A DNA stretch of 64,000 bases, taken from Candidatus Multivorans sp. (GTDB taxonomy: Bacteria > Acidobacteriota > Thermoanaerobaculia > Multivoradales > Multivoraceae). This document shows positions 3,519 through 63,537 of the stretch, piece by piece. The stretch's first letter is position 1; the number at the start of each line of letters is the position of its first letter. The notes under the pieces were generated by a model. That model worked only from the letters and a program-made list of their open reading frames with translations, was not told the origin of the DNA and did no database searches. The stretch lies in NCBI GenBank assembly GCA_965224025.1, contig OZ245033.1:418763-482762 (forward strand). The letters run 5' to 3'. A program made the translations under genes and the position numbers.

Positions 3519-4832
3519 TCACCGGTCGACGAAGGCGCCATCTTCGGTGGTCAGGGTGCTCCAGTCCTTCTCCTGGAAGGGGTACTTCGCGGCCACTTCC
3601 TCGTCGAGGTCGATGCCGAGACCGGGGCGGCTGGGGAGCGGGGCAAAACCGCGGTCGTAGGAGAAGTGGCCGCCGTAGAAGAGGTCCTGCCAGAACGGGT
3701 CCTGGCCGCTGCCGATCTCGAGGATGGTGCAGTTCGGGGTGCAGGCGCAGACGTGCATCGACGCCAGCGTGCTGACCTCGCTCTGCGGGTTGTGCGGCGA
3801 GACGTCGACGCGGAAGCCCTCGGCCATGATCGCGATCTTGCGCAGTTCGGAGATGCCGCCGACGTGGACGACGTCCGGCATGATCACGTCGACGAGCCGT
3901 TCGGAGCACAGCGGCGCGAAGTGGTAGCGCGAGGTGAGGCGCTCGCCGGTCGCCAAGGGCACGCGGGTCTGGGCGCGGATCTGCCGCACCTCCTCGATCA
4001 CCTCGTTCTCGAGCTGGGTGACTTCCTCCACCCAGAACGGCCGAAACTCCTCCACCCGGTTGCAGAACTCGACCGCGGAGAGCGGGGTCGGCTTGCCGTG
4101 CGCCTCGACGATGATGTCGAAGTCCGGGCCCACGATGTCGCGCACCTTGGCGAGGTGTTCGACGCCGCGGCGGATCGACACGCGGTGGTTGATGGGCCGG
4201 CCGCCCGGGTAGAAGCCGCCTTTGACGCAGGTCCAGCCGGCTTCCTTCTTCTGCCGCCAGAGGTCGAGGGCCTCCTCTTCGTCCGCGGCGCGGCGTTTCT
4301 CGCGGTGGCTGATGCGCTCGAGGTAGCCCTCGTGGCAGTAGAGCCGCACCCGGTCACGCGCCTTGCCGCCGAGGAGTTGCCAGATCGGCTGGCCGAGGGC
4401 CTGGCCGAGGATGTCCCACATGGCGACCTCGACCGCGGAGAGCGCCGACATGAGCACCGGGCCGCCGCGGTAGCGGGGGCCGATGAACATGCCGCGCCAG
4501 TGGCGCTCGATCTCGGTCGGGTCCTTGCCGACCAGGTAGCGCTTGTGGTTCTCAATGGCGGCCGCGACGACTTCGCCCTTGTTGGAGAGGGTGCCTTCGC
4601 CGAGGCCGGTGATTCCCTGGTTGGTGTAAAGCTTGACGAAGACGAAGTTCTCGTCGTTGCCGGCGTCGACGAGGAAGGTGCGGAGGTCGGTTATGCGGAG
4701 GTTGAGGGGCTTGGCGTCTTCGAACGTCTTCTCGAGGGGGCCGGGTTCTTGGGCCGGCAGGACGCGGGCGGTGGCGGCCGTGGCCAGGCCGAGCGCGGCC
4801 GTGAGGAGGGTCCTGCGATCGAGGTCAGTCAT
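3519..4832 (-). CDS. Enolase-superfamily enzyme (mandelate racemase/muconate lactonizing, galactonate-dehydratase-like) with a twin-arginine signal
   Basis: The track ORF 3519..5039 reads through a REP element. Internal ATG 4832 gives MTDLDRRTLLTAALGLATAATARVLPAQ (a Tat-type RR motif). This is followed by VKLYTNQGITGLGEGT and AVEVAMWDILGQALGQPIWQLLGG, typical of MR/MLE-family dehydratases. Confidence 0.85.
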   Translation of the reverse strand: MTDLDRRTLLTAALGLATAATARVLPAQEPGPLEKTFEDAKPLNLRITDLRTFLVDAGNDENFVFVKLYTNQGITGLGEGTLSNKGEVVAAAIENHKRYLVGKDPTEIERHWRGMFIGPRYRGGPVLMSALSAVEVAMWDILGQALGQPIWQLLGGKARDRVRLYCHEGYLERISHREKRRAADEEEALDLWRQKKEAGWTCVKGGFYPGGRPINHRVSIRRGVEHLAKVRDIVGPDFDIIVEAHGKPTPLSAVEFCNRVEEFRPFWVEEVTQLENEVIEEVRQIRAQTRVPLATGERLTSRYHFAPLCSERLVDVIMPDVVHVGGISELRKIAIMAEGFRVDVSPHNPQSEVSTLASMHVCACTPNCTILEIGSGQDPFWQDLFYGGHFSYDRGFAPLPSRPGLGIDLDEEVAAKYPFQEKDWSTLTTEDGAFVDR

Positions 4833-4864
4833 GCGGGGTTGGCTCTCGGCGAAGACGTGACGGT

Positions 4865-5079
4865 TGCAGTAGAGAACCGCATCGACACGACGGCGGTGCT
4901 CTGGGTGCGCGGGTCTTCTGACCCGCTCTCGGGCGAAGCCGCGAAGCGGCCAAGCCCGGAAGAACAGGGCCGCCGGCCGAAGGCCGGCGACGTTGCTTCT
5001 GGCCGCCTTCGGCGGCAGCGGGTCAGAAGACCCGCGCACCCAGAGATACGGTGCGGCGTGGATGAAACGCCCTGCTGCA
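4865..5079. repeat. REP-A family full-length palindromic element (~215 bp)
   Basis: The left arm is TGCAGTAGAGAAC..GCTCTGGGTGCGCGGGTCTTCTGACCCGC. The centre carries the hairpins GCCGCGAAGCGGC and GCCGGCCGAAGGCCGGC. The right arm is GCGGGTCAGAAGACCCGCGCACCCAGAGAT..CCCTGCTGCA. Confidence 0.85.
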
Positions 5080-5088
5080 AGTGGGGTC

Positions 5089-6609
5089 TCACCTTGCGTC
5101 GCCTCCGTGTTCGTCGACGAAGCGCCAATCGTGGCGGGCCTTCTCGTAGCCGGGGTTGATCGTCATTTCGCCGGCGCCGATCTGCTGGCGCCAGGCGACG
5201 AGTTGCTGGAGGAGGCTGTCGGAGAGTTCGGGTTTCTCCGCCGCGAGGTCGGCCGTTTCGCCTGGGTCGGCGTTGAGGTCGAAGAGGCTGACCGCGGGGC
5301 CGACGCCGGCGATGGAGCCTTCGAACCACTCGATCAGCTTGTGGTCGCCCTGCCGGATGGCGCCCGCCGGCATGTAGCCGAGGTGGTGGTAGTGCGGGTA
5401 GTGGAAGAAGAGCGTGTCGCGGTCCAGTGAGCCGCTTCCGTCGAGCACCGGCAGGAGGCTCAGACCGTCGATGTCGGCGGGCAGGTCGGTGACGCCGAGG
5501 ATGCCGGCGATCGTCGGGAAGAAGTCGTCCGAGGTGATCAGCTCGTCGTTGACGCTGCCGGGCGCCACCACGCCCGGCCACTTGACGGCCATCGGCACGC
5601 GGACCCCGCCTTCCCAGATCATCGCCTTGCCGCCGCGGAACGGGTCCTGCTCCTGGAGCTGCTCGAAGCCGCCGTTGTCGGAGTAGAAGATGACGATCGT
5701 GCGCTCGGTCAGGCCGTGCTCCTCGATGCGGTCGAGGATCTGCCCGAAACCGGTGTCCATCGTCTCGATCATCGCGCCCATGACCGGGTTGTTCACCGGG
5801 TCAGAGGCTTTGGGCTTCCCCTCGTACCTGGCGATCAGCTTCGGGTCCTCCAGCAGCGGACGATGGACCACGTGGTGCGAGACGTAGAGGAAGAACGGCT
5901 GCTCCCGGTTCGCGTCGAGAAACGCGAGCGACCGTTCGGTGATCTCGCGGGCGTGGTGGGCGTCGGCTAAGGGGTCGTCCTCGTACTCCGGCTTGACGGT
6001 GGTCAGGATGTCGTCGAAGCCTTGGGAGCCCGGGTCCATCGGTCGACCGGGCACGTACTCCTTGTCGACGTTCAGGTGCCACTTGCCGAAGTGGCCGGTG
6101 GCGTAGCCCTGGGACTTGAACAGCTCGGCGATGGTGACTTCCTCGAGCGGGAGTCCGGGCACTTCGGCGGGTCGGAGAAGGCGGGCGTAGGGGTAGGGGC
6201 TGCCGGGGATGTAGTCGGTGATCTGGAGGCGGGCCGGGTTCTTGCCTGTCATCAGGCTGGCCCGGGTCGGTGAACAGACGGGGTTCGCGGAGTAGGCGTT
6301 CGAGAACTGCATGCCGGCCGCGGCGACGGCGTCGATGTTCGGGGTCTCGTAGAAGGTCGTGCCGTGGTAGCCGACCTGGTTCCAGGCGAGGTCGTCGGCG
6401 AGGAAGAGAACGACGTTCCAGGGGGTTGGCGTGTCGGCTTCAGGCGCCGGGTCGGGGGCCGGGCCGCAGGCCGCCAGGAGGAGGGTCGCTGCAACTGCAG
6501 TAGAGAACCTGGCTACGCCGACGGCCGTTCTCTGGGTACGCGGACCCTCTGGTCCGCTTGCCGCCGAAGGCGGCGTCAGAATCGCCGCCGGCGAAGCCGG
6601 CGACCGCAT
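5089..6609 (-). CDS. Arylsulfatase (formylglycine-dependent sulfatase family), lipoprotein
   Basis: Shows the sulfatase signature CSPTRASLMTG, LADDLAWNQVGYHG and GKWHL, with a lipobox LLLAACG. There is no ATG/GTG/TTG directly before the signal peptide. The in-frame ATGs at 6609 and 6720 both lie inside the REP-A copy, so the 5' end is uncertain. Confidence 0.85.
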   Translation of the reverse strand: MRSPASPAAILTPPSAASGPEGPRTQRTAVGVARFSTAVAATLLLAACGPAPDPAPEADTPTPWNVVLFLADDLAWNQVGYHGTTFYETPNIDAVAAAGMQFSNAYSANPVCSPTRASLMTGKNPARLQITDYIPGSPYPYARLLRPAEVPGLPLEEVTIAELFKSQGYATGHFGKWHLNVDKEYVPGRPMDPGSQGFDDILTTVKPEYEDDPLADAHHAREITERSLAFLDANREQPFFLYVSHHVVHRPLLEDPKLIARYEGKPKASDPVNNPVMGAMIETMDTGFGQILDRIEEHGLTERTIVIFYSDNGGFEQLQEQDPFRGGKAMIWEGGVRVPMAVKWPGVVAPGSVNDELITSDDFFPTIAGILGVTDLPADIDGLSLLPVLDGSGSLDRDTLFFHYPHYHHLGYMPAGAIRQGDHKLIEWFEGSIAGVGPAVSLFDLNADPGETADLAAEKPELSDSLLQQLVAWRQQIGAGEMTINPGYEKARHDWRFVDEHGGDAR

Positions 6610-6709
6610 TTTCCGGGCTACGCCGCTCCGCGGCTTCGCCCGGGAGCGGACCAGAAGGTCCGCGCACCCAGAGAACGGGCGGTGCCGTGGGCGCGATTCT
6701 CTACGCAAC
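6495..6709. repeat. REP-A family full-length palindromic element (~215 bp)
   Basis: CTGCAGTAGAGAAC..CGTTCTCTGGGTACGCGGACCCTCTGGTCCGC .. GCCGCCGAAGGCGGC .. GCCGGCGAAGCCGGC .. GCGGACCAGAAGGTCCGCGCACCCAGAGAAC..GATTCTCTACGCAAC. Confidence 0.85.
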
Positions 6710-6735
6710 CTAAGGGTCATCGTCTATTCGCCTCC

Positions 6736-8295
6736 TCACGCCTCGCTTCGCTTTCGGTCTTTCCAGCCAGCATAGGTCAAGTTGCGGTCCACCTCGCGGG
6801 CCGGGAAGAAGTAGCTCGCCGCCCAGGCGACGACGAAGAGCACGATGTGACTGTAGACGCCGAGCATGTAGTTGTGCTGCGTGTAGTTGAGCGGGCCCAA
6901 GTCGAGCAGAATGCGCGGCTCGCCGCCGAGGCTGAACTCGGTGGACGTCAGCAGCGCCGCCGCGGTGAAGAGCACGCAGACGCCGACGCCGACGTAGAGG
7001 CCCTGCTTGTTCACGCGCGGCACGAAGATGCCGAGCAGGAACATGCCGGCGATGCCGCCCGAGAAGATCGCGTAGAGGGCGAACACGGTCGCCAGCACGC
7101 CCGCGTCGCCGACGGCGGCATAGATGAGCGCGACCACGATGGAGCCGACGCCCGACAGGACGACGACGATCTTCCCCACGCGGACGCGCTGGGCCTCCGT
7201 GCTCCGCGGCCGGAGCTTCTTGTAGTAGTCGTCGACGGCGACCGCGGCGAGGCAGTTGAGGTCCGAGTCGAGCGACGAGATCGCCGCGGCGAGCAGCGCC
7301 GCGATGATGAGCCCGATGACGCCCACCGGCATCTCGTTCAGGATGAAGTGCGGGAACACGGCGTCGGCGCGGAGGCCGTCCGGCAGCGTCGCGGACCCCT
7401 GGTAGAAGGCGTAGAGCGCCGTGCCGATGAACATGAACATCACCCACACCGGCACCACCATCAGCACCCCGCCGATCGAGGCTCGGATCGCTTCCTTGTC
7501 CGACCTGGCGGTCAGGTAGCGCTGCACCATCGTCTGGTCGGTGCCGTACTTCTGGACGGCGTAGAAGATGCCGTTGATCGCCATGACCCAGAAGGTCAGT
7601 TCGACCAGGTTCCAGTCGAACGAGCCGAGGCTCACCTTGTTCTCGGCCGCCGCGATGGTGAACACCTGGCCCAGGCCGCCGTCGAGCTTGACGGCGATGA
7701 CGAGCAGGGTCACGAGGCCGCCCAGGATGAGCAGCACCCCCTGGATCACGTCGAGCCAGATGACCGCCTCCATCCCGCCGAGGAGCGTCAGGACGGTCAC
7801 CACCAGGCCAAGGACCACGATCACCGTGACGACGCCGATGCCCGTCATGCTGGAGACCGCCAGCGCGAGCAGAAAGAACACGGAACCCATGCCGGCGAAC
7901 TGCGCCAGCACGAAGGCCAGCGAGGCGTAGAGCCGCGCGAGGTAACCGAACCGCCGCTCGAAGTACTCGTAGGCGCTGAGCCCGATGACCTTGCGGTACA
8001 TCGGCACGATGAAGCCGATGCCGGCCAGCACGACGACCGGCACCATGAGCCCCTGCACCAGGCGCACCCAGTTGCCGGCGAAGCCGTCGCCCGGGTAGGC
8101 CAGGAAGGTGATGCTGCTGATCAGCGTCGCGAAGATGGACAGGCCGATCGCCCATACCGGGACGTTACGGCCGGCGGCGAAGTACTTCGAAGTCGTCGAC
8201 TGGGCCTTCGCGAAGCGGAGGCCCACGCCTAACGACAGGACGAGGCTCGCCCCGATGATCAGGTAGTCGAGGAGGTGGAGGGATGGGGTGTCCAT
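6736..8295 (-). CDS. Sodium:solute symporter (SSS) family transporter
   Basis: 519-aa polytopic hydrophobic ORF. The N-terminus YFAAGRNVPVWAIGLSIFATLISSITFLAYPG is typical of SSS permeases. Confidence 0.9.
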   Translation of the reverse strand: MDTPSLHLLDYLIIGASLVLSLGVGLRFAKAQSTTSKYFAAGRNVPVWAIGLSIFATLISSITFLAYPGDGFAGNWVRLVQGLMVPVVVLAGIGFIVPMYRKVIGLSAYEYFERRFGYLARLYASLAFVLAQFAGMGSVFFLLALAVSSMTGIGVVTVIVVLGLVVTVLTLLGGMEAVIWLDVIQGVLLILGGLVTLLVIAVKLDGGLGQVFTIAAAENKVSLGSFDWNLVELTFWVMAINGIFYAVQKYGTDQTMVQRYLTARSDKEAIRASIGGVLMVVPVWVMFMFIGTALYAFYQGSATLPDGLRADAVFPHFILNEMPVGVIGLIIAALLAAAISSLDSDLNCLAAVAVDDYYKKLRPRSTEAQRVRVGKIVVVLSGVGSIVVALIYAAVGDAGVLATVFALYAIFSGGIAGMFLLGIFVPRVNKQGLYVGVGVCVLFTAAALLTSTEFSLGGEPRILLDLGPLNYTQHNYMLGVYSHIVLFVVAWAASYFFPAREVDRNLTYAGWKDRKRSEA

Positions 8296-39548: not shown

Positions 39549-41234
39549 TTAGTGGACGTGACCCTCGGCCTCGCCGCTGGCCATCAAGGACGAGCGGCGG
39601 ATCGCGTCGCCGCCGCGGGTCACCAGGCGCTGGCCGTGCATCAGGCGCTCGACGCGCGCCCGGTCTCCCTGCCGCTTGAGCACGGTCACCCTCTGGCGTA
39701 CGAAGCTCTCCCCGGAGAGCTGCAGGAACACGACCGGTACGCCGCCGTCGTCGACCAACGCCGACTCGGGAACGACGATGCCGGTCTCCTCCTCGTCGAG
39801 GAGGATCTGCGCCGCGACAGTCGATCCCAGTGCGATGCCGGCGCCGGCAAGGCCCGGTGCCTGCAGCAGAACGGTGACGGTACCGGTCCGCGGCGAGACT
39901 TCCGGCGCGATCGAGACGAGGGAGAGCCCCTCCTCGACTCTCACCGGCTCGCTCTCCGGATCCTCGATAACGAGGCCCCGCACACCCGAGGCGGCGAGCC
40001 GGCGCGCTCCCTGAGGCGGCAACGCGACCTCGATCCACGCGAGGTCCGTTCGGACCAGACGGGCGAGGGAGTCGCCGGCGGCCACCGTCGCGCCGGGCGT
40101 TGTGCTGACCTCGGCGATCTGGCCGGCGAACGGGGCCTTCAGGGAGATGCCGATGCCGTCCGCTCCACCCTCGCGGGAGGAACGGGCCGACTCGAGGTCG
40201 CGTTCCGCCGCCCGGTGTCGCGCCTCGAGTGTCCTGACCCGAACCCGAGCCTCCTCCGCCTCGCGCTCGCTGGTCGCTTCGAGAGCCAGAAGTTCTTCCA
40301 GGCGCAACCGCCGTGCATGGGCGCTCTCCAGCTCGGTCGCCAGCGTCTCGAGCTCCGCTTCGAGCGTCGCCAGACTCCGCTCGGCCGCGACCAGCGGGAC
40401 CACGCGGAACAGGCGGGAGTCCCGCTGCACGCGGCGGCCGACGAACGGCCAGGCGCTTGAGGCGCCCGGCGGCTGCACGACGCCGTCAACCTGTGCGGTC
40501 ACCGTGCTCTCGCCACCCGCCGGCGGACGGAAGGTCGCCAGGCCGGCCACGCTCTCGGCCAACCGCCCCTCCTCGACCCAGGCGGTCGCGAAGGAACTCT
40601 GCCACTGCTGCTCCTTGAGGAAGGAGACGGGCTCGCCCCCGTCGGACCCGGTCGGCGCCGAGGAAGCAACCAGGAGGCCACCCGGGTCGTCAGACGTCCC
40701 AACCCGGACCCGGCCGCCCCGGATCTCCTCGGTGCCTTCCGCATCGTGGATGCGAAACACCACATCGGCGTCGCCGGCCTGCCGCGGCGTCACCTGGATG
40801 TCGAAGATCCCGGGCCGGAGCACCTCATCCGCGCCAAACACCTGCTCTTCGGAAGCGTCTACGAGCACGATCTCCACTCTGCCGTCCACCACGGGCGTGA
40901 AGTCGGCGAGCCGCGTCACGTGGGTGTGAGCCTTCGCCGCCTGGCCCGCCACCAGAGCGTCGACCTCGGGGAAGACCTCGAAGCGCTCGCCCCAGGCGGT
41001 GACGGCCCAGGTTTCGCTCTCGGCGGGCGGCGGCTCGGCCGGCGGAGCGGCACCGCAGGCGAGCAGGAAGAGCGCGGGGAGCGCGCCAACCCAGCTCCGC
41101 CGCGAGCGGGCGCAGCACGGGCCAGGCACACGGCGCTTCGATCCTGGGAACGCGGGCATCCTGCCCGCATCCGGAGGGGTTCGGCTCCGGGCCTGCTCAC
41201 ACATCTTCGTCATCATCGTTCCACTCCACGTCAT
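39549..41234 (-). CDS. Efflux RND periplasmic adaptor (MFP, CusB/CzcB-like) with an extra N-terminal beta-domain
   Basis: Shows a coiled-coil (LEAELETLATELESAHARRLRLEEL) and beta-barrel/lipoyl-like segments. The start overlaps the cusC-like stop (ATGA). Codons ~20-32 are encoded by a REP-B copy. A lipobox LFLLAC lies at residues ~55-60. Confidence 0.8.
   Translation of the reverse strand: MTWSGTMMTKMCEQARSRTPPDAGRMPAFPGSKRRVPGPCCARSRRSWVGALPALFLLACGAAPPAEPPPAESETWAVTAWGERFEVFPEVDALVAGQAAKAHTHVTRLADFTPVVDGRVEIVLVDASEEQVFGADEVLRPGIFDIQVTPRQAGDADVVFRIHDAEGTEEIRGGRVRVGTSDDPGGLLVASSAPTGSDGGEPVSFLKEQQWQSSFATAWVEEGRLAESVAGLATFRPPAGGESTVTAQVDGVVQPPGASSAWPFVGRRVQRDSRLFRVVPLVAAERSLATLEAELETLATELESAHARRLRLEELLALEATSEREAEEARVRVRTLEARHRAAERDLESARSSREGGADGIGISLKAPFAGQIAEVSTTPGATVAAGDSLARLVRTDLAWIEVALPPQGARRLAASGVRGLVIEDPESEPVRVEEGLSLVSIAPEVSPRTGTVTVLLQAPGLAGAGIALGSTVAAQILLDEEETGIVVPESALVDDGGVPVVFLQLSGESFVRQRVTVLKRQGDRARVERLMHGQRLVTRGGDAIRRSSLMASGEAEGHVH
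41144..41173. repeat. REP-B sub-module (GCGGGCATCCTGCCCGC hairpin)
   Basis: CTGGGAACGCGGGCATCCTGCCCGCATCCGG is the reverse complement of 63507..63537 and is also present at 43085..43110. Confidence 0.75.
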
Positions 41235-53052: not shown

Positions 53053-54186
53053 GTGAAGATCTACACAGCGTTCATCGTCGCCGAGTTGAAGATGTTCTTC
53101 CGCGACCGGGCGGCGCTCTTCTGGTCGTTGGCCTTTCCGACCGTGATGATGGTCGTCTTCGGCCTCTTCGACTTCGGCAGTTTCGTCCCGCCGAGCGTGG
53201 GCATCGTCGACCAGGCGAAGAACCAGACGTCGGCCCTCCTGGTGTCCGTGTTGAAGGGCGACCTCGGCGGCGAACCGCTCTTCACCGTCCCCGAGTCCGA
53301 GGACGCCGAGGTCCTGCGAGCCGAGGTCCTCGCCGGCGACATCACCGCGGTGATGGTGATCCCCGAGGGCTTCGGGGAACTCGGCTTCGGCGAACTCGGC
53401 GCCTCCTCGACAATCGACCTCACGTTCGATGGCAGGAAGGCCCAGGAGGCGGAGGCGGCCCGGTCCATTCTGGCTCAGGTGCTCGAAGGGGTCTTCAAGT
53501 CCGTCGCGGACGTCCCCGCGGAGTACCGGGTCGAGAACTGGGCGACGGTCTCCGCCACCGAAGTCGCGGGCCGCGGCCAGGGTTACAAGGGGTTCATCGT
53601 GCCCGGGATCGTCTCGCTGGCCATCATGCAGAGCGCGCTCTTCGGCGTCGTCTTCACGCTCGTGCGGCTGCGCAACCAAGGCGTGCTCAAGCGGCTGCAC
53701 GCCACGCCCATCGGCCCGAATCATTTCCTGGTCGGTTCACTCACGACCAGGCTCCTGCTGCTCGTTCTGCAGACGAACGTCTTGCTGCTCGTCGGCATCC
53801 TCGTGTCCCGCGTCGACGTGGCGCCGGGCTATCCCCTGTTCTGGCTGGAGGTCATCCCTCTGATCTTCCTCGGCGGACTCGTGTTCGCCTCATTGGGCCT
53901 GGCGATCTCAGGCATCGCGAAGACGGAGAACACGGCGGCGCCCCTCGCGAACATCGTGTCGCTGCCCCTGATGTTCCTGTCCGGCGTGTTCTTCTCCCAG
54001 ACCGCGCTGCCGGACTGGCTCCTGGGGTTCGCGAAGTGGCTGCCGCTGACCTTCCTGGCCGACGCGATGCGAGCCATGGTGAACAGCGGCGAGACGCTGT
54101 TCAGTCAGGGCGGGCCGATCCTGGGGTTGGCCGGGTGGGCCGTCGTCTGCTTCGGGCTTGCCGTGTGGGCGTTCCGGTGGGAATGA
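53053..54186 (+). CDS. ABC-2 type transporter permease
   Basis: GTG start 10 nt after the ATPase stop. The product is 377 aa with an N-terminal TM, a large loop and five C-terminal TM segments (GFIVPGIVSLAIMQSALFGV). Confidence 0.85.
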   Translation: MKIYTAFIVAELKMFFRDRAALFWSLAFPTVMMVVFGLFDFGSFVPPSVGIVDQAKNQTSALLVSVLKGDLGGEPLFTVPESEDAEVLRAEVLAGDITAVMVIPEGFGELGFGELGASSTIDLTFDGRKAQEAEAARSILAQVLEGVFKSVADVPAEYRVENWATVSATEVAGRGQGYKGFIVPGIVSLAIMQSALFGVVFTLVRLRNQGVLKRLHATPIGPNHFLVGSLTTRLLLLVLQTNVLLLVGILVSRVDVAPGYPLFWLEVIPLIFLGGLVFASLGLAISGIAKTENTAAPLANIVSLPLMFLSGVFFSQTALPDWLLGFAKWLPLTFLADAMRAMVNSGETLFSQGGPILGLAGWAVVCFGLAVWAFRWE

Positions 54187-54234
54187 TCGGCGGTGCCGCG
54201 GAACGTGCGAGAGCAACGCCGCTCCAGTAGCGCT

Positions 54235-54739
54235 TCAGAACTCGATCGGAAAGACGTTGGGGGTAGTGTCGATCCGAATCAACCTCCGCTCGCTAACGCC
54301 CGGGGCATCGACTTGGAGGCGGTAGTTGCCGGTAGGAATACGGCCGGTCCAGAGCGTCTCACCCGTTGAATGGCCGTTGTCACATGGTTCTACTGCGTGG
54401 CCCAAATGAGTGACGTCCCCACAGGGCGGCGCGAGGAGGGCGTCCGGGATGCTGCCCACGGTCGCGGCGTCGTGCCGTCCGACGTTGAGTTGAACGACTG
54501 CGTCACCGTCCGATCGTGCAGCAACAACCTGAAGCGCTGGCCGCCAGACCAGAGGGTCCGCCGTTTCACCCACGCGGGGCCAAACGACGACATGATTCGG
54601 TTGATCCGCGACGCTGCGCCCGCACTGTCACCCGCGTCGGGAGCGAACTCGTGTGCCGGCCACTCGCCCAGTTCAACTCGACCGAGCAACGCCGCATCTT
54701 GCGCCTTCGCCGTAACGCTCGCGAAAGACAGCACGCAAA
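54235..54739 (-). pseudogene. 3' part of a small secreted-protein gene split by the IS insertion (also frameshifted ~54600)
   Basis: Removing 54740..57604 joins GTG ~57638 (M)FRSARVSAAAVCV to LSFASVTAKAQDAALLGRVELGEW.., which restores a signal peptide. The C-terminal part (LVWRPALQVV...TTPNVFPIEF*) lies in a second frame. Confidence 0.55.
54732..54739. repeat. Target-site duplication, left (CACGCAAA)
   Basis: Identical 8-mer at 57597..57604, directly abutting the inverted repeats. Confidence 0.9.
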
Positions 54740-54763
54740 GGGGATTATATCCGTAGGTTGACA
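54740..54763. repeat. IS terminal inverted repeat (distal to the transposase)
   Basis: See the mobile element entry. Confidence 0.9.
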
Positions 54764-54771
54764 GAAACCGA

Positions 54772-54906
54772 TCACGCCTCGGCCTTCTTGGTGGCCTTGA
54801 CCGGCTTCGCCCGGTCCTTCATCAGCAGCCAGTGCGCCACCTGCTTCGGAGTCGCGCCGTTGTAGTTGGCCTTCAATCCCTTGCGGCGAGGCTTCTTGAT
54901 CTTCAT
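54772..54906 (-). CDS. Small basic protein (44 aa) inside the IS
   Basis: MKIKKPRRKGLKANYNGATPKQVAHWLLMKDRAKPVKATKKAEA*. Too short for the ORF track. It lies downstream of the methyltransferase and within the IS boundaries. Confidence 0.4.
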   Translation of the reverse strand: MKIKKPRRKGLKANYNGATPKQVAHWLLMKDRAKPVKATKKAEA

Positions 54907-54949
54907 AACAGCGCCGCTCACCTAGGCCCGCCGTAGATGGAATGCTCCC

Positions 54950-56536
54950 TCAGAACAGTTCCTGCTGCGCCATCGGCTTGCCGCTGTACGGATCGTTCAT
55001 CGTCGGCAAGCGTGGCAGTCTCCCGTCGAAGTACTCGCTGATCGGCCATAGCTGCATTCTCCTGTAGGGCTGACCGGACACGCTGATCGTGCCAGCCTCT
55101 GCCGCTTCCGCCCGCGCTGCACGCGAGCCGACTGGTTCCAGTGTGACGAAGCAGCCGAGAGCCGCTTCGTCGCGGTCTGTGACATGGCGGAAGTCCCGCA
55201 ACGCTCCGAGATGGAATCCACCGCCCTTGATCTGCGCCAGCGCGAGACGGGAATCGTAGTCGTCCGGCTGAGCGGCGATCACGGCGCGACCGTCCACGCC
55301 GCCGTCCGCAACCTGCTTCATGTTCGGCGCGAAACCGGGGAGCCGCGTCACCGCCCACGATTCAAAGCTGAACGGCTGCTCGGTTGCCAGCTTGCGCGCC
55401 GATGCGAGATCGACCGGGATCCCCTTCGTCGGGATCGTCCGGTTCTTCAGCCGCTTCTCACGGATCAGGTCGATAGCGAATGACGAAATGTCGATCCCGG
55501 CCCACTGTCGGCCGAGACGCTGCGCCGCTTCAATGGTCGTACCGCAACCGCAGAACGGATCGAGAATCAGGTCGTCAGGGTTACTGCTCGCTTCGATGAT
55601 CCGCTCCAGCAACGCGCGGGGCTTCTGGGTCGGGTAACCCATCCGTTCCTTCGCCTGGGCGCCGATCGGCCCTATGTCCGTCCATAGGTCCTGCAACGGC
55701 CGGCCCTTGGCCTCGTCCAAATAGCGCTTGTAGGCCGGGACGCGGCCCGGCGCTGTTTGTACAACCCGTCCTTCGTCGATCATCCGCTGCATCCGCTCGC
55801 GGGAGTAGGCCCAATAGCGCGTTACGCCCAGTACCTCGTACTGCGGGTTGCCCTTCGCTGCACCGCCGCGCCCAGTCATATCGCTGAGTCGATAGCGCCG
55901 TCCAGTGTCTTCTTCGACATAGCGGTAGAAACCGTCGACGTATTGGTCATCGTATGGCGTGTACAGCGGATTCCAAGCCCAACCGTCGCCCCTCGAGTAG
56001 TAGAGGACGCGATCCAGTACACGTCCAAATTGTCGTCTTCCCTGCGCGCCGTCGTTGTGGCTGCTGGTTCGCTTCCATCCGATTTCGGATCGGAAATTCG
56101 GCACACCGAAGATCGCGTCCATGACGATTTTGAGATAGTGGCTCGCGGTCGGGTCACAGTGCAAGTAGATCGAACCTGTTGGCTTGAGGAGCCGGTGCAT
56201 GTGCTCCAAGCGCTCCGCCATGTAGGTCAGGTAGGCGAGCATCCCGGACGGGCCGATGGCGTGCCGTAGGCCCACTATCGCGTCGTGGGCGCGTCGTGCG
56301 GGCGCACCCTCGTAGGCCGCGTAGCGGTCCGCCGCGGCTTCGTCCCACGCCCATGTGTCGCTGAACGCCCGGTACTGCGCGTCAGCGCCGCCGCGAGCCG
56401 AGTAGAGGATGTTGTAGTCGGCCTTCGAGTTGAATGGCGGATCGAGGTAAATCAGGTCTACGGACTGATCGTCCCATCGCTGCATCCAGTCGAGGCAGTC
56501 ACCGTAGTACAGCGTGCCCGCGTCCGGTGGGTTCAT
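54950..56536 (-). CDS. Beta-class N6-adenine/N4-cytosine DNA methyltransferase with a C-terminal nuclease-like (Mrr/PD-(D/E)xK-like) domain
   Basis: Motif IV (IYLDPPFNS) precedes motif I (ILDPFCGCGTTIEAA). The C-terminal ~150 aa contain ADGGVDGRAVI..LAQIKGG. The ATG overlaps the transposase stop (ATGA). Confidence 0.8.
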   Translation of the reverse strand: MNPPDAGTLYYGDCLDWMQRWDDQSVDLIYLDPPFNSKADYNILYSARGGADAQYRAFSDTWAWDEAAADRYAAYEGAPARRAHDAIVGLRHAIGPSGMLAYLTYMAERLEHMHRLLKPTGSIYLHCDPTASHYLKIVMDAIFGVPNFRSEIGWKRTSSHNDGAQGRRQFGRVLDRVLYYSRGDGWAWNPLYTPYDDQYVDGFYRYVEEDTGRRYRLSDMTGRGGAAKGNPQYEVLGVTRYWAYSRERMQRMIDEGRVVQTAPGRVPAYKRYLDEAKGRPLQDLWTDIGPIGAQAKERMGYPTQKPRALLERIIEASSNPDDLILDPFCGCGTTIEAAQRLGRQWAGIDISSFAIDLIREKRLKNRTIPTKGIPVDLASARKLATEQPFSFESWAVTRLPGFAPNMKQVADGGVDGRAVIAAQPDDYDSRLALAQIKGGGFHLGALRDFRHVTDRDEAALGCFVTLEPVGSRAARAEAAEAGTISVSGQPYRRMQLWPISEYFDGRLPRLPTMNDPYSGKPMAQQELF

Positions 56537-57537
56537 GCCGAGCGAGCGCCGGACGGCAGGCCGTTGTCGGCGATCAGGTCACGGTACTGGAGCCGCTTGC
56601 CCGCCAGCCCCTCGGTGACGGACGCCATTTGCGCCAGCGTGTCGAGATCGCGGAAGTTGTGACGGCCCGCGAACTGGTTGACGTAGCGCTGTAGATGCTT
56701 CGGTGAGAGCTTGTGGTACACGCCCTTGTGGGCGCGCTTGAGCATCGACCAGAAGCTCTCGATCGAGTTCGTGTGAACCTTGCCCGCAACGTACTCGCCG
56801 ACCGAGTGCTTGACGGTGCCGCGCTCGTACTCGGTCAAACCGCTGTACGCCCCCGTATCGTCCGTGTAGACCGTTGCGCCGGGTTCGACGTGCTCACGGA
56901 CGAACGCTTGCAGGGTCTCGCCGTCGGTCGAACGGACGACACGCGCCGCCACCATGCCGGTCTCGCGGTCCTTGACGCCCACCACCGCTGTCTTGCCGAC
57001 AGAGCCACGGCCTTCGAGGGTCTTGCGCTTCTTCGCGTGCATATTCTTCCGCAGACCGCCGAAGTACGCCTCATCGGCTTCTGCCGGTCCCTCGAAGCGC
57101 ACGGTCGGCCCCGAGTCGCTGAACTCGCGGATGCGCTGGAGCATGAACCACGCGGTCTTCTGAGTGACGCCCAGGTCACGGTGGATCTTCATCGACGACA
57201 CGCCCTTGAGGCTCGTTGTGTCGAGGTAGATCGCGTACAGCCACTTGAGCAGAGGCAGCTTCGACCGCGCCATCACGGTGCCGGTCTTCACCGAGAAGTA
57301 CCGCTTGCAGTCGCGGCAGCGGTACGGCATCTTCGCGTGGCTGCACTCGTGGTTGTTGTCGGTGCCGCAGTGCGGGCAGTAGCGCTCGCCGTCCGGCCAG
57401 ACGATCGCCTCGAACCACTGCCGCGCCGCTTCCTCATCGGGGAACATCCGCTGCAAGTCGAACAGCGTGATGCCCTTCCGGTGAGCCTTGCCGGGTGCCT
57501 TGAGTTCTGTGTCGTTCATCGCTTCTCCCTCCGTCAA
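56533..57537 (-). CDS. IS1595-family (ISXO2-like) DDE transposase
   Basis: An N-terminal zinc ribbon (CPHCG..CRDCKRYFSVKTGT) is followed by EADEAYFGG, VYTDDTGAYSGL and HTNSIESFWSMLKR. Confidence 0.9.
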   Translation of the reverse strand: MTEGEAMNDTELKAPGKAHRKGITLFDLQRMFPDEEAARQWFEAIVWPDGERYCPHCGTDNNHECSHAKMPYRCRDCKRYFSVKTGTVMARSKLPLLKWLYAIYLDTTSLKGVSSMKIHRDLGVTQKTAWFMLQRIREFSDSGPTVRFEGPAEADEAYFGGLRKNMHAKKRKTLEGRGSVGKTAVVGVKDRETGMVAARVVRSTDGETLQAFVREHVEPGATVYTDDTGAYSGLTEYERGTVKHSVGEYVAGKVHTNSIESFWSMLKRAHKGVYHKLSPKHLQRYVNQFAGRHNFRDLDTLAQMASVTEGLAGKRLQYRDLIADNGLPSGARSA

Positions 57538-57572
57538 CCGTGAGGTATACCCTACCGGACGGAGAGCCAGTT

Positions 57573-57596
57573 TGTCAACCTAGAGATATAATCCCC
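57573..57596. repeat. IS terminal inverted repeat (transposase-proximal)
   Basis: See the mobile element entry. Confidence 0.9.
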
Positions 57597-57604
57597 CACG
57601 CAAA
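57597..57604. repeat. Target-site duplication, right (CACGCAAA)
   Basis: Identical to 54732..54739. Confidence 0.9.
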
Positions 57605-57718
57605 CTGCCGCCGCTGAAACCCTCGCGGATCTGAACACAGGACAGCAGGTCCAATCCAACCGCACGGTCTCTGGAGTGGTACCGCGCTCTGCGCGGCCCT
57701 AGAAGCCCGACTTCCGCT

Positions 57719-58792
57719 CTACTGACCGCCCGAACTCTGCGGCTGGTCGTACTCCGACTCGAGCAGGCGAGCGCCGCGCAGGACGTTGCCCATCGCGTAG
57801 TTGCCTTCGTGACAGGCGTACTCGTAGACGCGGCTGTCCTTGCCCTGCCAGGAGTACTCACCCGCCCAGGGCGCAGTCCACGAGTTCGGATCCTCGACCC
57901 GGAAGTGGTAGAGCAGATTCCCGTCCTCGGTCCGGGTGAAGCGCTCCTCCACGTGCATGGTCTCGCTGCCTCCGGGGAGACCGGTCTGGTTGCGGAAGTT
58001 GCGCGTATTGACGACCAGGGTGTCGCCATCCCAGTGGCCGACGCCATCACCGAGCCACCAGTTGACGCCATCAGGACCGGGCTCGCCGTCGATGGGCACG
58101 ATCCGGGCGTCGTGGACCATCTCCGCCATGATGACGACATGGTTCTCGGTCTGGACGATGCGCGCGTAGTTGTTGTACAGGCTGGGCAGCAGCGGAGGTC
58201 CGCCGACGAAGCCGAGCAGGCAACGCTCGGCCAGGGCCAGGGTCTCGGGGCCATCGAACGGGCCGGGGCCGTCATGGTCGAGCCAGGATGCGGTGCCGTC
58301 GTTGTTGTGGATGAACGAGGCGAAGTTCGTGGCCATCCGGCGCATGGCCGCGGGCGTCATCATCGGCCGGCGACCGTTCGGCGGGTCGTAGATGATCGAG
58401 GTGCGGAACTTGCCGTCCACCACCACGGCCTCGGAGCCGGGGTCGATCCAGAACGCGTTGTAGCCGCCGACGCCGCCGCCGCCGAAGCGGTTGTCGCCAT
58501 CGCCGCCTTTCTTGGGCGCTCCGCGGTCGGCGCCGCCACCCTTGTCCTCTTCGATGTTCTGCCAGAACGCCTCCCTCTCCTCTTCGAGCGCCTGCCCTTG
58601 CTCGGGGGTCAGGTAGAGGTTCTCGCCGTACTGCTGCGGACGATCGACCGGGGTGACCGTTCCGGCGTCATACACCCCGGAGAGGTCGGGTTTGCCGTTC
58701 GGCAGCCGCTTGATGCCGTCTCCCTCCTCGGCCAAAGCCGGCACAGCGATGAGGACGAGAATGGCGAGCGAGGCGAGGATGAGCTTGCGCAT
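57719..58792 (-). CDS. Hypothetical secreted protein
   Basis: 357 aa with signal MRKLILASLAILVLIAVPALA. It has a Gly-rich segment and a C-terminal YEYACHEGNYAMGNVLRGAR. No family name can be assigned from memory. Confidence 0.7.
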   Translation of the reverse strand: MRKLILASLAILVLIAVPALAEEGDGIKRLPNGKPDLSGVYDAGTVTPVDRPQQYGENLYLTPEQGQALEEEREAFWQNIEEDKGGGADRGAPKKGGDGDNRFGGGGVGGYNAFWIDPGSEAVVVDGKFRTSIIYDPPNGRRPMMTPAAMRRMATNFASFIHNNDGTASWLDHDGPGPFDGPETLALAERCLLGFVGGPPLLPSLYNNYARIVQTENHVVIMAEMVHDARIVPIDGEPGPDGVNWWLGDGVGHWDGDTLVVNTRNFRNQTGLPGGSETMHVEERFTRTEDGNLLYHFRVEDPNSWTAPWAGEYSWQGKDSRVYEYACHEGNYAMGNVLRGARLLESEYDQPQSSGGQ

Positions 58793-63506: not shown

Positions 63507-63537
63507 CCGGATGCGGGCAGGATGCCCGCGTTCCCAG
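63507..63537. repeat. REP-B sub-module
   Basis: CCGGATGCGGGCAGGATGCCCGCGTTCCCAG is the reverse complement of 41144..41173. Confidence 0.75.

Follow-up and report, generated by a model that had tools for sequence, protein, structure and literature searches.

Introduction

Insertion sequences (ISs) of the IS1595 family reportedly include a subgroup with passenger genes, 'ISNwi1' / 'ISNwi1+', which Siguier, Gagnevin and Chandler are said to have described in 2009. Two cargo elements of the family, MTnSag1 of Streptococcus agalactiae and tISCpe8 of Clostridium perfringens, have 25-bp inverted repeats (IRs) and 8-bp repeats (PMC5704250). Restriction-modification (RM) genes have also been found in transposon-like units with imperfect IRs and an 8-bp duplication (Furuta, Abe and Kobayashi, 2010; PMC2853133), and in Neisseria gonorrhoeae such a unit has IRs of 26 bp and contains a homologue of Type IIG RM enzymes together with a transposase-like open reading frame (ORF) of COG3677 (PMC2853133). 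Here we describe an element at positions 54740-57596 of a 64-kb stretch of the Candidatus Multivorans sp. contig OZ245033.1; the whole stretch is referred to as the window, and related loci and contigs from outside it carry L-numbers. This segment is very probably an intact and recently active cargo-carrying 'transporter IS' of the IS1595 family, whose cargo, a DNA methyltransferase fused to a predicted nuclease, is RM-like.

The window element resembles the reported passenger subgroup of IS1595 in its single zinc-ribbon and DDE(K) transposase, its terminal IRs of some 24 bp, its 8-bp duplication and the additional genes inside the IRs. Its termini, GGGGATTAT, fit the consensus that we take to be that of ISNwi1 ends (ggnnatTAT), and its length of 2.9 kb presumably falls within the size range of the IS1595 cargo subgroup; the assignment to the subgroup is our assumption. 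To our knowledge, no element with a methyltransferase::nuclease cargo, or with a conserved small ORF adjoining the IR distal to the transposase gene (IRR), has been described. MTnSag1 and tISCpe8 share with the window element an IS1595 DDE transposase, nearly the same IR length, the 8-bp repeats and the presence of internal passenger genes (PMC5704250). They are conjugatively mobilisable and carry lincosamide resistance and mobilisation genes, whereas the window element carries a DNA-modification/nuclease enzyme and showed no oriT or mobilisation gene. The units of Furuta and co-workers resemble the window element in that RM-type genes are bounded by imperfect IRs and an 8-bp duplication (PMC2853133), but they are single cases with a truncated RM gene or with no recognisable active transposase. 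The window element, in contrast, has an apparently intact transposase, identical copies at two loci and dozens of sister elements.

Results

Mobility of the element

A second copy of the element was found at an unrelated locus. The 19.7-kb contig L095, from metagenome sample ERZ25067264, encodes the exact transposase of the window, and its positions 4924-7036 correspond to window positions 57596-55484 with 100% identity over 2,113 bp, as far as the contig end. This copy begins exactly at the first IR base (57596), the DNA upstream of it is unrelated to the window, and the element sits in the 3' end of an aldehyde dehydrogenase gene, which is thereby interrupted. Two Logan contigs from other sequencing runs, L093 and L094, are also 100% identical to the element, and both end 2 nt past IRR, which is the behaviour of an assembly graph in which one repeat has several flanks.

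The closest transposases, with 93% and 88% identity, are encoded in contigs of 4.5-4.9 Mb (loci L001-L003). L002 and L003 come from a single genome and show 100% identity over exactly 2,697 bp, beyond which they are unrelated; the identity runs from IR to IR and includes a methyltransferase::HNH gene. The ends of L001-L003 are the same as those of the window element (GGGGATTATATC.GTAGGTTGAC repeats), and each of the four related insertions is flanked by its own perfect 8-bp duplication, which is GAAAATTG and CAGCGCTG in L002 and L003 and TTCGGGAA in L001. A gene not involved in transposition thus moves together with the IRs that enclose it, as is characteristic of a transporter IS, both in L095 and in L002/L003. 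Because of the identical copy at a second locus, the ends of L093 and L094 and the paired copies in L002 and L003, the IR-to-IR unit, including the methyltransferase, is judged from these comparisons to be mobile and to have moved recently. The first-pass annotation, made from the letters of the window, had proposed a recent insertion with the methyltransferase as cargo. The former is upheld by the perfect duplication together with the identical copy in the same metagenome, and the latter by the transposase-methyltransferase copy that starts at the IR in L095; no occurrence of this element without the methyltransferase or with other ends was encountered.

Organisation of the element

The element spans 2,857 bp from IR to IR and encloses three genes, all on the minus strand, in the order IRL (the IR adjoining the transposase gene), transposase, cargo gene of 528 aa, small basic ORF and IRR (Table 1). 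When the coordinates were re-read, all those previously given for the 24-bp IRs and the sequence between them were correct, and the 8-bp duplication did abut both arms on their outer side. The IR motif, with up to three mismatches allowed, occurs at only two sites in the 64 kb, both of them the arms of the element, while none was expected from 100 dinucleotide-preserving shuffles of the window. The stop codon of the transposase gene overlaps the start of the methyltransferase gene (TCAT at 56533-56536 on the plus strand, which is ATGA on the coding strand), in agreement with the translational coupling suggested earlier.

Table 1. Positions of the features of the IS1595-family element in the window
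Feature	Position	Strand	Remarks
8-bp target-site duplication CACGCAAA, small-ORF end	54732..54739		same 8 letters as 57597-57604
IRR, terminal inverted repeat distal to transposase gene, GGGGATTATATCCGTAGGTTGACA	54740..54763		22/24 with the other arm
Basic 44-aa ORF (MKIKKPRRKGLKANYNGATPKQVAHWLLMKDRAKPVKATKKAEA), end-proximal, probably an IS gene	54772..54906	-	motif conserved just inside IRR
C-terminal domain, residues 371-528, predicted Mrr-type PD-(D/E)xK nuclease fold	54953..55426	-	Mrr_cat in homologues, conserved residues
N-terminal beta-class N6/N4 DNA methyltransferase domain, residues 1-370	55427..56536	-	PF01555, DPPF motif
IS1595-family transposase, zinc-ribbon and DDE domains	56533..57519	-	Pfam and NCBIfam matches
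IRL, terminal inverted repeat adjoining transposase gene, reverse complement GGGGATTATATCTCTAGGTTGACA	57573..57596		22/24 with IRR
8-bp target-site duplication CACGCAAA, transposase end	57597..57604		directly outside IRL

Transposase and its clade

The transposase ORF (56533-57537) encodes 334 aa when read from TTG (57537) and 328 aa when read from ATG (57519), and the latter form is the one recorded in public gene calls. Pfam Zn_ribbon_IS1595 (PF12760; 3.7e-8) and DDE_Tnp_IS1595 (PF12762; 1.2e-39) match the protein above their gathering scores, and the NCBIfam model transpos_IS1595 (NF033547) matches it at 8.5e-56, with 189 bits compared to a cut-off of 75. The earlier assignment of the 334-aa ORF as a zinc-ribbon and DDE transposase of the IS1595 family is therefore backed by strong family matches. 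In 28 homologues with 66-93% identity, the zinc-ribbon residues C48, C51, C68 and C71, as well as the catalytic residues D149, D220 and E254 and K261 (E+7), are invariant, and by its sequence the transposase looks intact. The features that define the family, namely a zinc ribbon with an ISXO2-like DDE domain, the DDE(K+7) signature, short terminal IRs and an 8-bp duplication, are all present. The remark in the first-pass annotation that ISfinder lists IS1595 subgroups with passenger genes and 8-bp duplications is in keeping with MTnSag1 and tISCpe8 (PMC5704250).

A scan of one genome per species gave 594 transposase relatives, and the best 80 of the 594 are 54-74% identical to the window transposase. 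The metagenome-assembled genomes (MAGs) with relatives span Acidobacteriota, Alpha- and Gammaproteobacteria, Gemmatimonadota, Chloroflexota and Thermodesulfobacteriota. Titles indicating a source (Spongia_Bin9; SB06xx, RHO, jk18x and Plut bins) are taken by us to denote sponge or coral MAGs; for MAGs with OZ and CBD accessions, a sponge origin was not confirmed from the literature. At 50 of 86 related loci, IRs of the type GGG(G/A)(A/C)TTA(T/C)A are accompanied by a perfect 8-bp duplication, which differs from element to element. These 50 intact elements measure 1,364-5,438 bp, and almost all of them therefore carry extra DNA. Their duplications (50 elements among L001-L092) have a mean GC content of 26%, compared to 59% in the flanks, with A or T at position 2 in 50/50 and at position 7 in 49/50. 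This corresponds to a symmetric N-W-N4-W-N target preference, into which the duplication of the window element also fits.

Identity to the window transposase does not exceed 45% among transposases from plasmids of cultured bacteria, or 48% among those from viral contigs. Since only such distant plasmid and viral relatives were found, these comparisons point to no phage or plasmid vehicle, apart from L011. The latter contig carries an element (3954-6741) composed of a transposase, a methyltransferase::Mrr gene and a small ORF, with the duplication CTTGTAAA, along with a phage tail gene and further small ORFs of phage-like character. Transfer between hosts by a phage is a possibility.

Some further features were seen in members of the clade. 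Both identical sister copies lie in defence-gene neighbourhoods (L002 8493-12243; L003 1-5865 and 8839-11713): one adjoins GmrSD and AAA_15/21 genes, and the other is situated inside a cluster of Type I RM, SIR2, HicB and ApeA genes. In L066, a perfect 268-nt inverted repeat (4651-4918 and 6288-6555) flanks the transposase gene of a 3.7-kb element. The right end of L067 (about 7700-7870) contains a tandem repeat in the cargo region, which translates as GWTGGRVD units in several frames.

Cargo slot and cargo exchange

When the window element is aligned with L001-L003, nucleotide similarity is about 85% over IRL and the transposase gene and 75-81% over the small ORF and IRR, and it largely breaks down between the transposase gene and the small ORF. 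The methyltransferases encoded in this interval are 43% identical over residues 22-368, and the C-termini are unrelated, being Mrr-type in the window and HNH in L001-L003. The HNH domain of the sister elements has an intact H-N-N motif and CxxC pairs, and its position is equivalent to that of the Mrr-type domain. The order of transposase, methyltransferase-nuclease and small ORF is found in L001-L003, and also in L011, L012, L018 and L041. In the low-coverage contigs L256 and L257 (sample ERZ25067264), a transposase 71% identical to that of the window is followed by a methyltransferase::HNH gene; this transposase is also on record for the 5.05-Mb contig to which the window belongs.

The cargo of 46 elements was surveyed with Pfam, covering 94 ORFs with a length of 85 aa or more. 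Most of them have no Pfam family. The commonest identifiable cargo is N6_N4_Mtase (11 ORFs), which in several cases is accompanied by HNH (5 ORFs) or Mrr_cat (2 ORFs). Other cargo includes C5 methylase, GmrSD, SNase, HIRAN, T5orf172, Clp protease, glycosyltransferase and HTH regulators. Methyltransferase cargo occurs on either strand among the related elements. Judged from these alignments and this census, the backbone of the element has a modular cargo slot between the transposase gene and the small ORF.

The methyltransferase-nuclease fusion

The cargo gene (54950-56536, minus strand) encodes a protein of 528 aa with two domains. PF01555 matches residues 26-359 at 2e-40, and the motifs DPPF (D32-P33-P34-F35) and DPFCGCGT (326-333), with motif IV ahead of the S-adenosylmethionine-binding motif, are invariant among homologues; the DPPF motif suggests that the methyltransferase domain is probably N6-adenine-specific. 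Sequence matches of this domain in PDB are CcrM, MboIIA and RsrI, and Foldseek matches are EcoP15I Mod, CcrM and M.BceJIV. The AlphaFold2 model of the full-length protein has a predicted local distance difference test (pLDDT) score of 86.6.

Among 60 full-length homologues, Mrr_cat (PF04471) is matched by 57 at E<=0.01 (best 3.2e-7). In the same 60 proteins, which are 58-77% identical, residues E392, D411, D415 and Q435-x-K437 of the C-terminal domain are invariant. When this domain is modelled alone, it has a pLDDT of 88.7 and an alpha-beta-beta-beta-alpha-beta core. Sequence conservation and the model together suggest that the C-terminal domain is an Mrr-type PD-(D/E)xK nuclease, which is probably active. 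The label 'DNA methyltransferase' given to this ORF in the first-pass annotation is correct for the N-terminal domain, but it understates a two-domain methyltransferase-nuclease fusion. The accompanying guess that a restriction-like module is being moved was a good one, since a predicted Mrr-type nuclease domain forms the C-terminus of the methyltransferase protein.

Outside the element, full-length methyltransferase::Mrr homologues with 41-57% identity are common in the JGI metagenomes, which represent many environments. Where at least 1.1 kb of upstream DNA was available (n=47), an IS1595 transposase was present at only one locus (1/47), and among 247 flanking ORFs no conserved partner gene of the solitary family was found. 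Because the family is mostly solitary elsewhere, the methyltransferase::Mrr fusion is regarded as true cargo. These sequence surveys indicate that the fusion is a self-contained solitary gene, which has been captured repeatedly by this IS clade, and such solitary behaviour would be expected, by analogy, of a single-chain RM-like enzyme. Six contigs (L005-L010) contain a methyltransferase::Mrr gene 71% identical to that of the window (e.g. L005 4807-6575). Neither a transposase nor IRs accompany it, and several strains have it at the same conserved locus; this copy could be captured or domesticated. Upstream of the fusion gene in these six contigs, a 65-aa ORF overlaps its start.

The small ORF adjoining IRR

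The small ORF (54772-54921) encodes 49 aa if translation starts at GTG, and 44 aa if it starts at the ATG at 54906. A conserved version is present in L001 and L003, and in about 20 related elements the motif (N/A)-x-Y-x-G-A-T-P-x-x-V-A-x-x-L-L is retained on the transposase strand just inside IRR. A hidden Markov model (HMM) built from 14 such ORFs and scanned over the 86 related loci gave strong matches (E<1e-9) at about 20 of them, on the transposase strand and immediately inside IRR. The carriers have unrelated cargo, and one of them, L068, is a 1.5-kb element essentially without cargo; in several related elements, the stop codon of the small ORF falls within the IR. No Pfam, NCBIfam or PADLOC family matches the small ORF, even at E<=10, and in a large protein search the only match was the protein of the window itself. 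Because it is conserved beside IRR in elements with unrelated cargo, the small ORF appears to be a backbone gene of a subclade, and probably a core IS gene rather than cargo. The 44-aa basic ORF noted in the first-pass annotation is indeed present, and its description can be refined to that of a conserved IS-associated gene found in about 20 elements.

Insertion site and other features of the window

The insertion site lies in about 660 bp (54187-54731 and 57605-57718) between two flanking ORFs. One of them is an ABC-2-type permease ORF (53053-54186, plus strand), and the other encodes a 357-aa signal-peptide protein without a Pfam family (57719-58792, minus strand). The rebuilt empty site is spanned by putative ORFs of 147-155 aa, and the insertion may have disrupted a small gene at the site.

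The inner end of the IR is a perfect TTGACA, and the opposite strand, read outward, has a perfect TATAAT at a distance of 4 nt from the tip. Within the IRs of the clade, conservation is highest in the blocks ATTATA and TTGAC. On the transposase side, TTGACA is followed 18 nt later by TAGGGT, which is a possible weak promoter. A sigma-70 promoter scan found no promoter-like site within the element, and an Rfam scan of the window gave no match.

A 31-nt palindromic REP-like repeat, CTGGGAACGCGGGCATCCTGCCCGCATCCGG, is present at 41144-41174 (plus strand) and 63507-63537 (minus strand) of the window, while none is expected by chance. The same repeat is found in L095, at about 1174-1225, which suggests that this contig derives from the same or a closely related genome.

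Discussion

The anatomy and boundaries of the element, its family membership, the independent insertions, the modular cargo and the conservation of catalytic residues were described above, and on this basis a mechanism may be proposed. The zinc-ribbon/DDE transposase would recognise the 24-bp terminal IRs and insert the whole 2,857-bp unit by an 8-bp staggered cut, with a preference for AT-rich 8-mers that have A or T at positions 2 and 7. The transposase and the methyltransferase-nuclease would be co-expressed through the ATGA overlap. The fusion would methylate host DNA at a specific motif (N6-methyladenine, m6A) and cut unmodified DNA; such RM activity would give the host a defence, and it could also put a cost on losing the element. 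The 44-aa protein may be a small basic DNA-binding accessory or regulator, encoded by the IS and acting at the adjacent IR. What we infer here, beyond the anatomy of the element, is every enzymatic activity, the function in restriction or addiction, and what the small protein does. Several observations weigh against parts of this interpretation; they concern the nuclease, the recent movement and the small ORF, and are considered below together with the alternatives on which they bear.

The cargo looks, by analogy, like a single-chain RM-like enzyme, because its C-terminus is Mrr-type and because methyltransferase::HNH fusions occupy the same slot in the closest elements. The main rival explanation is that the cargo is an orphan, epigenetic or anti-restriction methyltransferase, whose C-terminal nuclease fold is dead or serves only in DNA binding, so that the IS spreads modification. 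Such a role may be suggested by the Mrr_cat score of the window protein itself (E=0.003, 18.1 bits), which lies below the curated cut-off of 21 bits, and by the 13 of 60 homologues that also touch NA-iREase1, a model of inactive restriction endonuclease (REase) folds; cleavage activity is therefore not assured. The top Foldseek matches of the C-terminal domain are restriction-endonuclease folds (EcoO109I, Can2, Ecl18kI, EcoT38I, AgeI and BglII), but they are weak and below significance (best E=0.05), while a sequence-profile search of this domain against PDB gave no match. PADLOC assigned only methyltransferase models and no REase model to the cargo protein. Moreover, sequence and profile searches of PDB revealed no characterised enzyme in which the domains have this order, and the restriction role is therefore proposed by analogy. 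However, the invariance of E392, D411/D415 and Q435-x-K437 in 60 homologues is unexpected for a dead site, and the intact HNH domain in the equivalent position of the sister elements points to selection for a nuclease as such. An orphan methyltransferase thus seems rather unlikely, and a methyltransferase joined to a probably active nuclease is the preferred reading of the cargo.

The fusion resembles the Type IIG/IIC enzymes, such as MmeI and BcgI, in which a methyltransferase and a nuclease are combined in one chain encoded by a solitary, self-contained gene; in the window protein the endonuclease is a predicted one. In the classical Type IIG layout, an N-terminal PD-(D/E)xK domain is followed by a gamma-class methyltransferase and a target recognition domain. 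The window fusion has a different layout, with a beta-class methyltransferase (closest in fold to CcrM and Type III Mod) first and an Mrr-type domain, or HNH in its relatives, last. Therefore, it should not be classed with the canonical Type IIG enzymes.

It is very unlikely that the element is an immobile relic with decaying genes, whose IRs and duplication are left over from an old insertion. Such an old insertion would be in keeping with the single copy in the 64-kb window and with the failure to recover an empty site. The joined flanks had been proposed as a probe for the latter, but their 35-mer is absent from the JGI metagenomes, and a look-up of the flanking 357-aa protein returned only the low-coverage contig L004, which stops about 110 bp short of the element. 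Against decay stand the three intact ORFs with conserved catalytic residues, the perfect duplication, the 100% identical copy at a second locus in the same sample, and the assembly graphs of two other runs, which branch at the IR end. The interpretation of the element as recently active is therefore retained.

The idea that the methyltransferase-nuclease belongs to the transposition machinery, serving target choice, donor cleavage or homing, was rejected as scarcely credible: the fusion is translationally coupled to the transposase and the gene order recurs in the seven loci named above, but most intact sister elements carry unrelated or barely any cargo (1.36-1.5 kb), the methyltransferase lies on the opposite strand in some of them, the family is solitary at 46/47 loci outside the clade, and L005-L010 keep the fusion on its own. 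The absence of the small ORF from most of the 86 related loci bears in turn on its place in the backbone, and it indicates that this gene is not essential for the whole clade.

Since cargo-carrying IS1595 elements and transposon-like RM units have already been described, the general picture of IS biology is unchanged. What has apparently not been described is the recurrence of methyltransferase::Mrr and methyltransferase::HNH fusions as IS1595 cargo, the conserved small ORF at the right end, and the breadth of the clade in genomes of uncultured marine symbionts. Tentatively, and as something short of probable, it may be suggested that this undescribed clade serves as a cross-phylum shuttle for methyltransferase-nuclease and defence cargo among sponge and coral symbionts, with a defined cargo slot and a new small DNA-binding accessory. 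If this were true, it would offer a concrete mechanism by which transposases and RM genes become enriched together in sponge symbiont genomes, as has long been noted, and it would define a new IS-encoded accessory protein.

Summarizing, the element is a clean case of an IS that appears to transport an entire DNA-modification/nuclease enzyme within a single 2.9-kb unit, and there are signs that it was active very recently. The shared backbone with swapped cargo offers a natural system in which the acquisition and exchange of cargo by ISs can be followed. The uncharacterised fusions of a beta-class methyltransferase with an Mrr-type or HNH domain are candidates for single-chain restriction enzymes, and the conserved 44-aa protein is a candidate for a new transposition accessory factor. 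Elements of this kind may help defence or epigenetic functions to spread between phyla where host-associated communities are dense.

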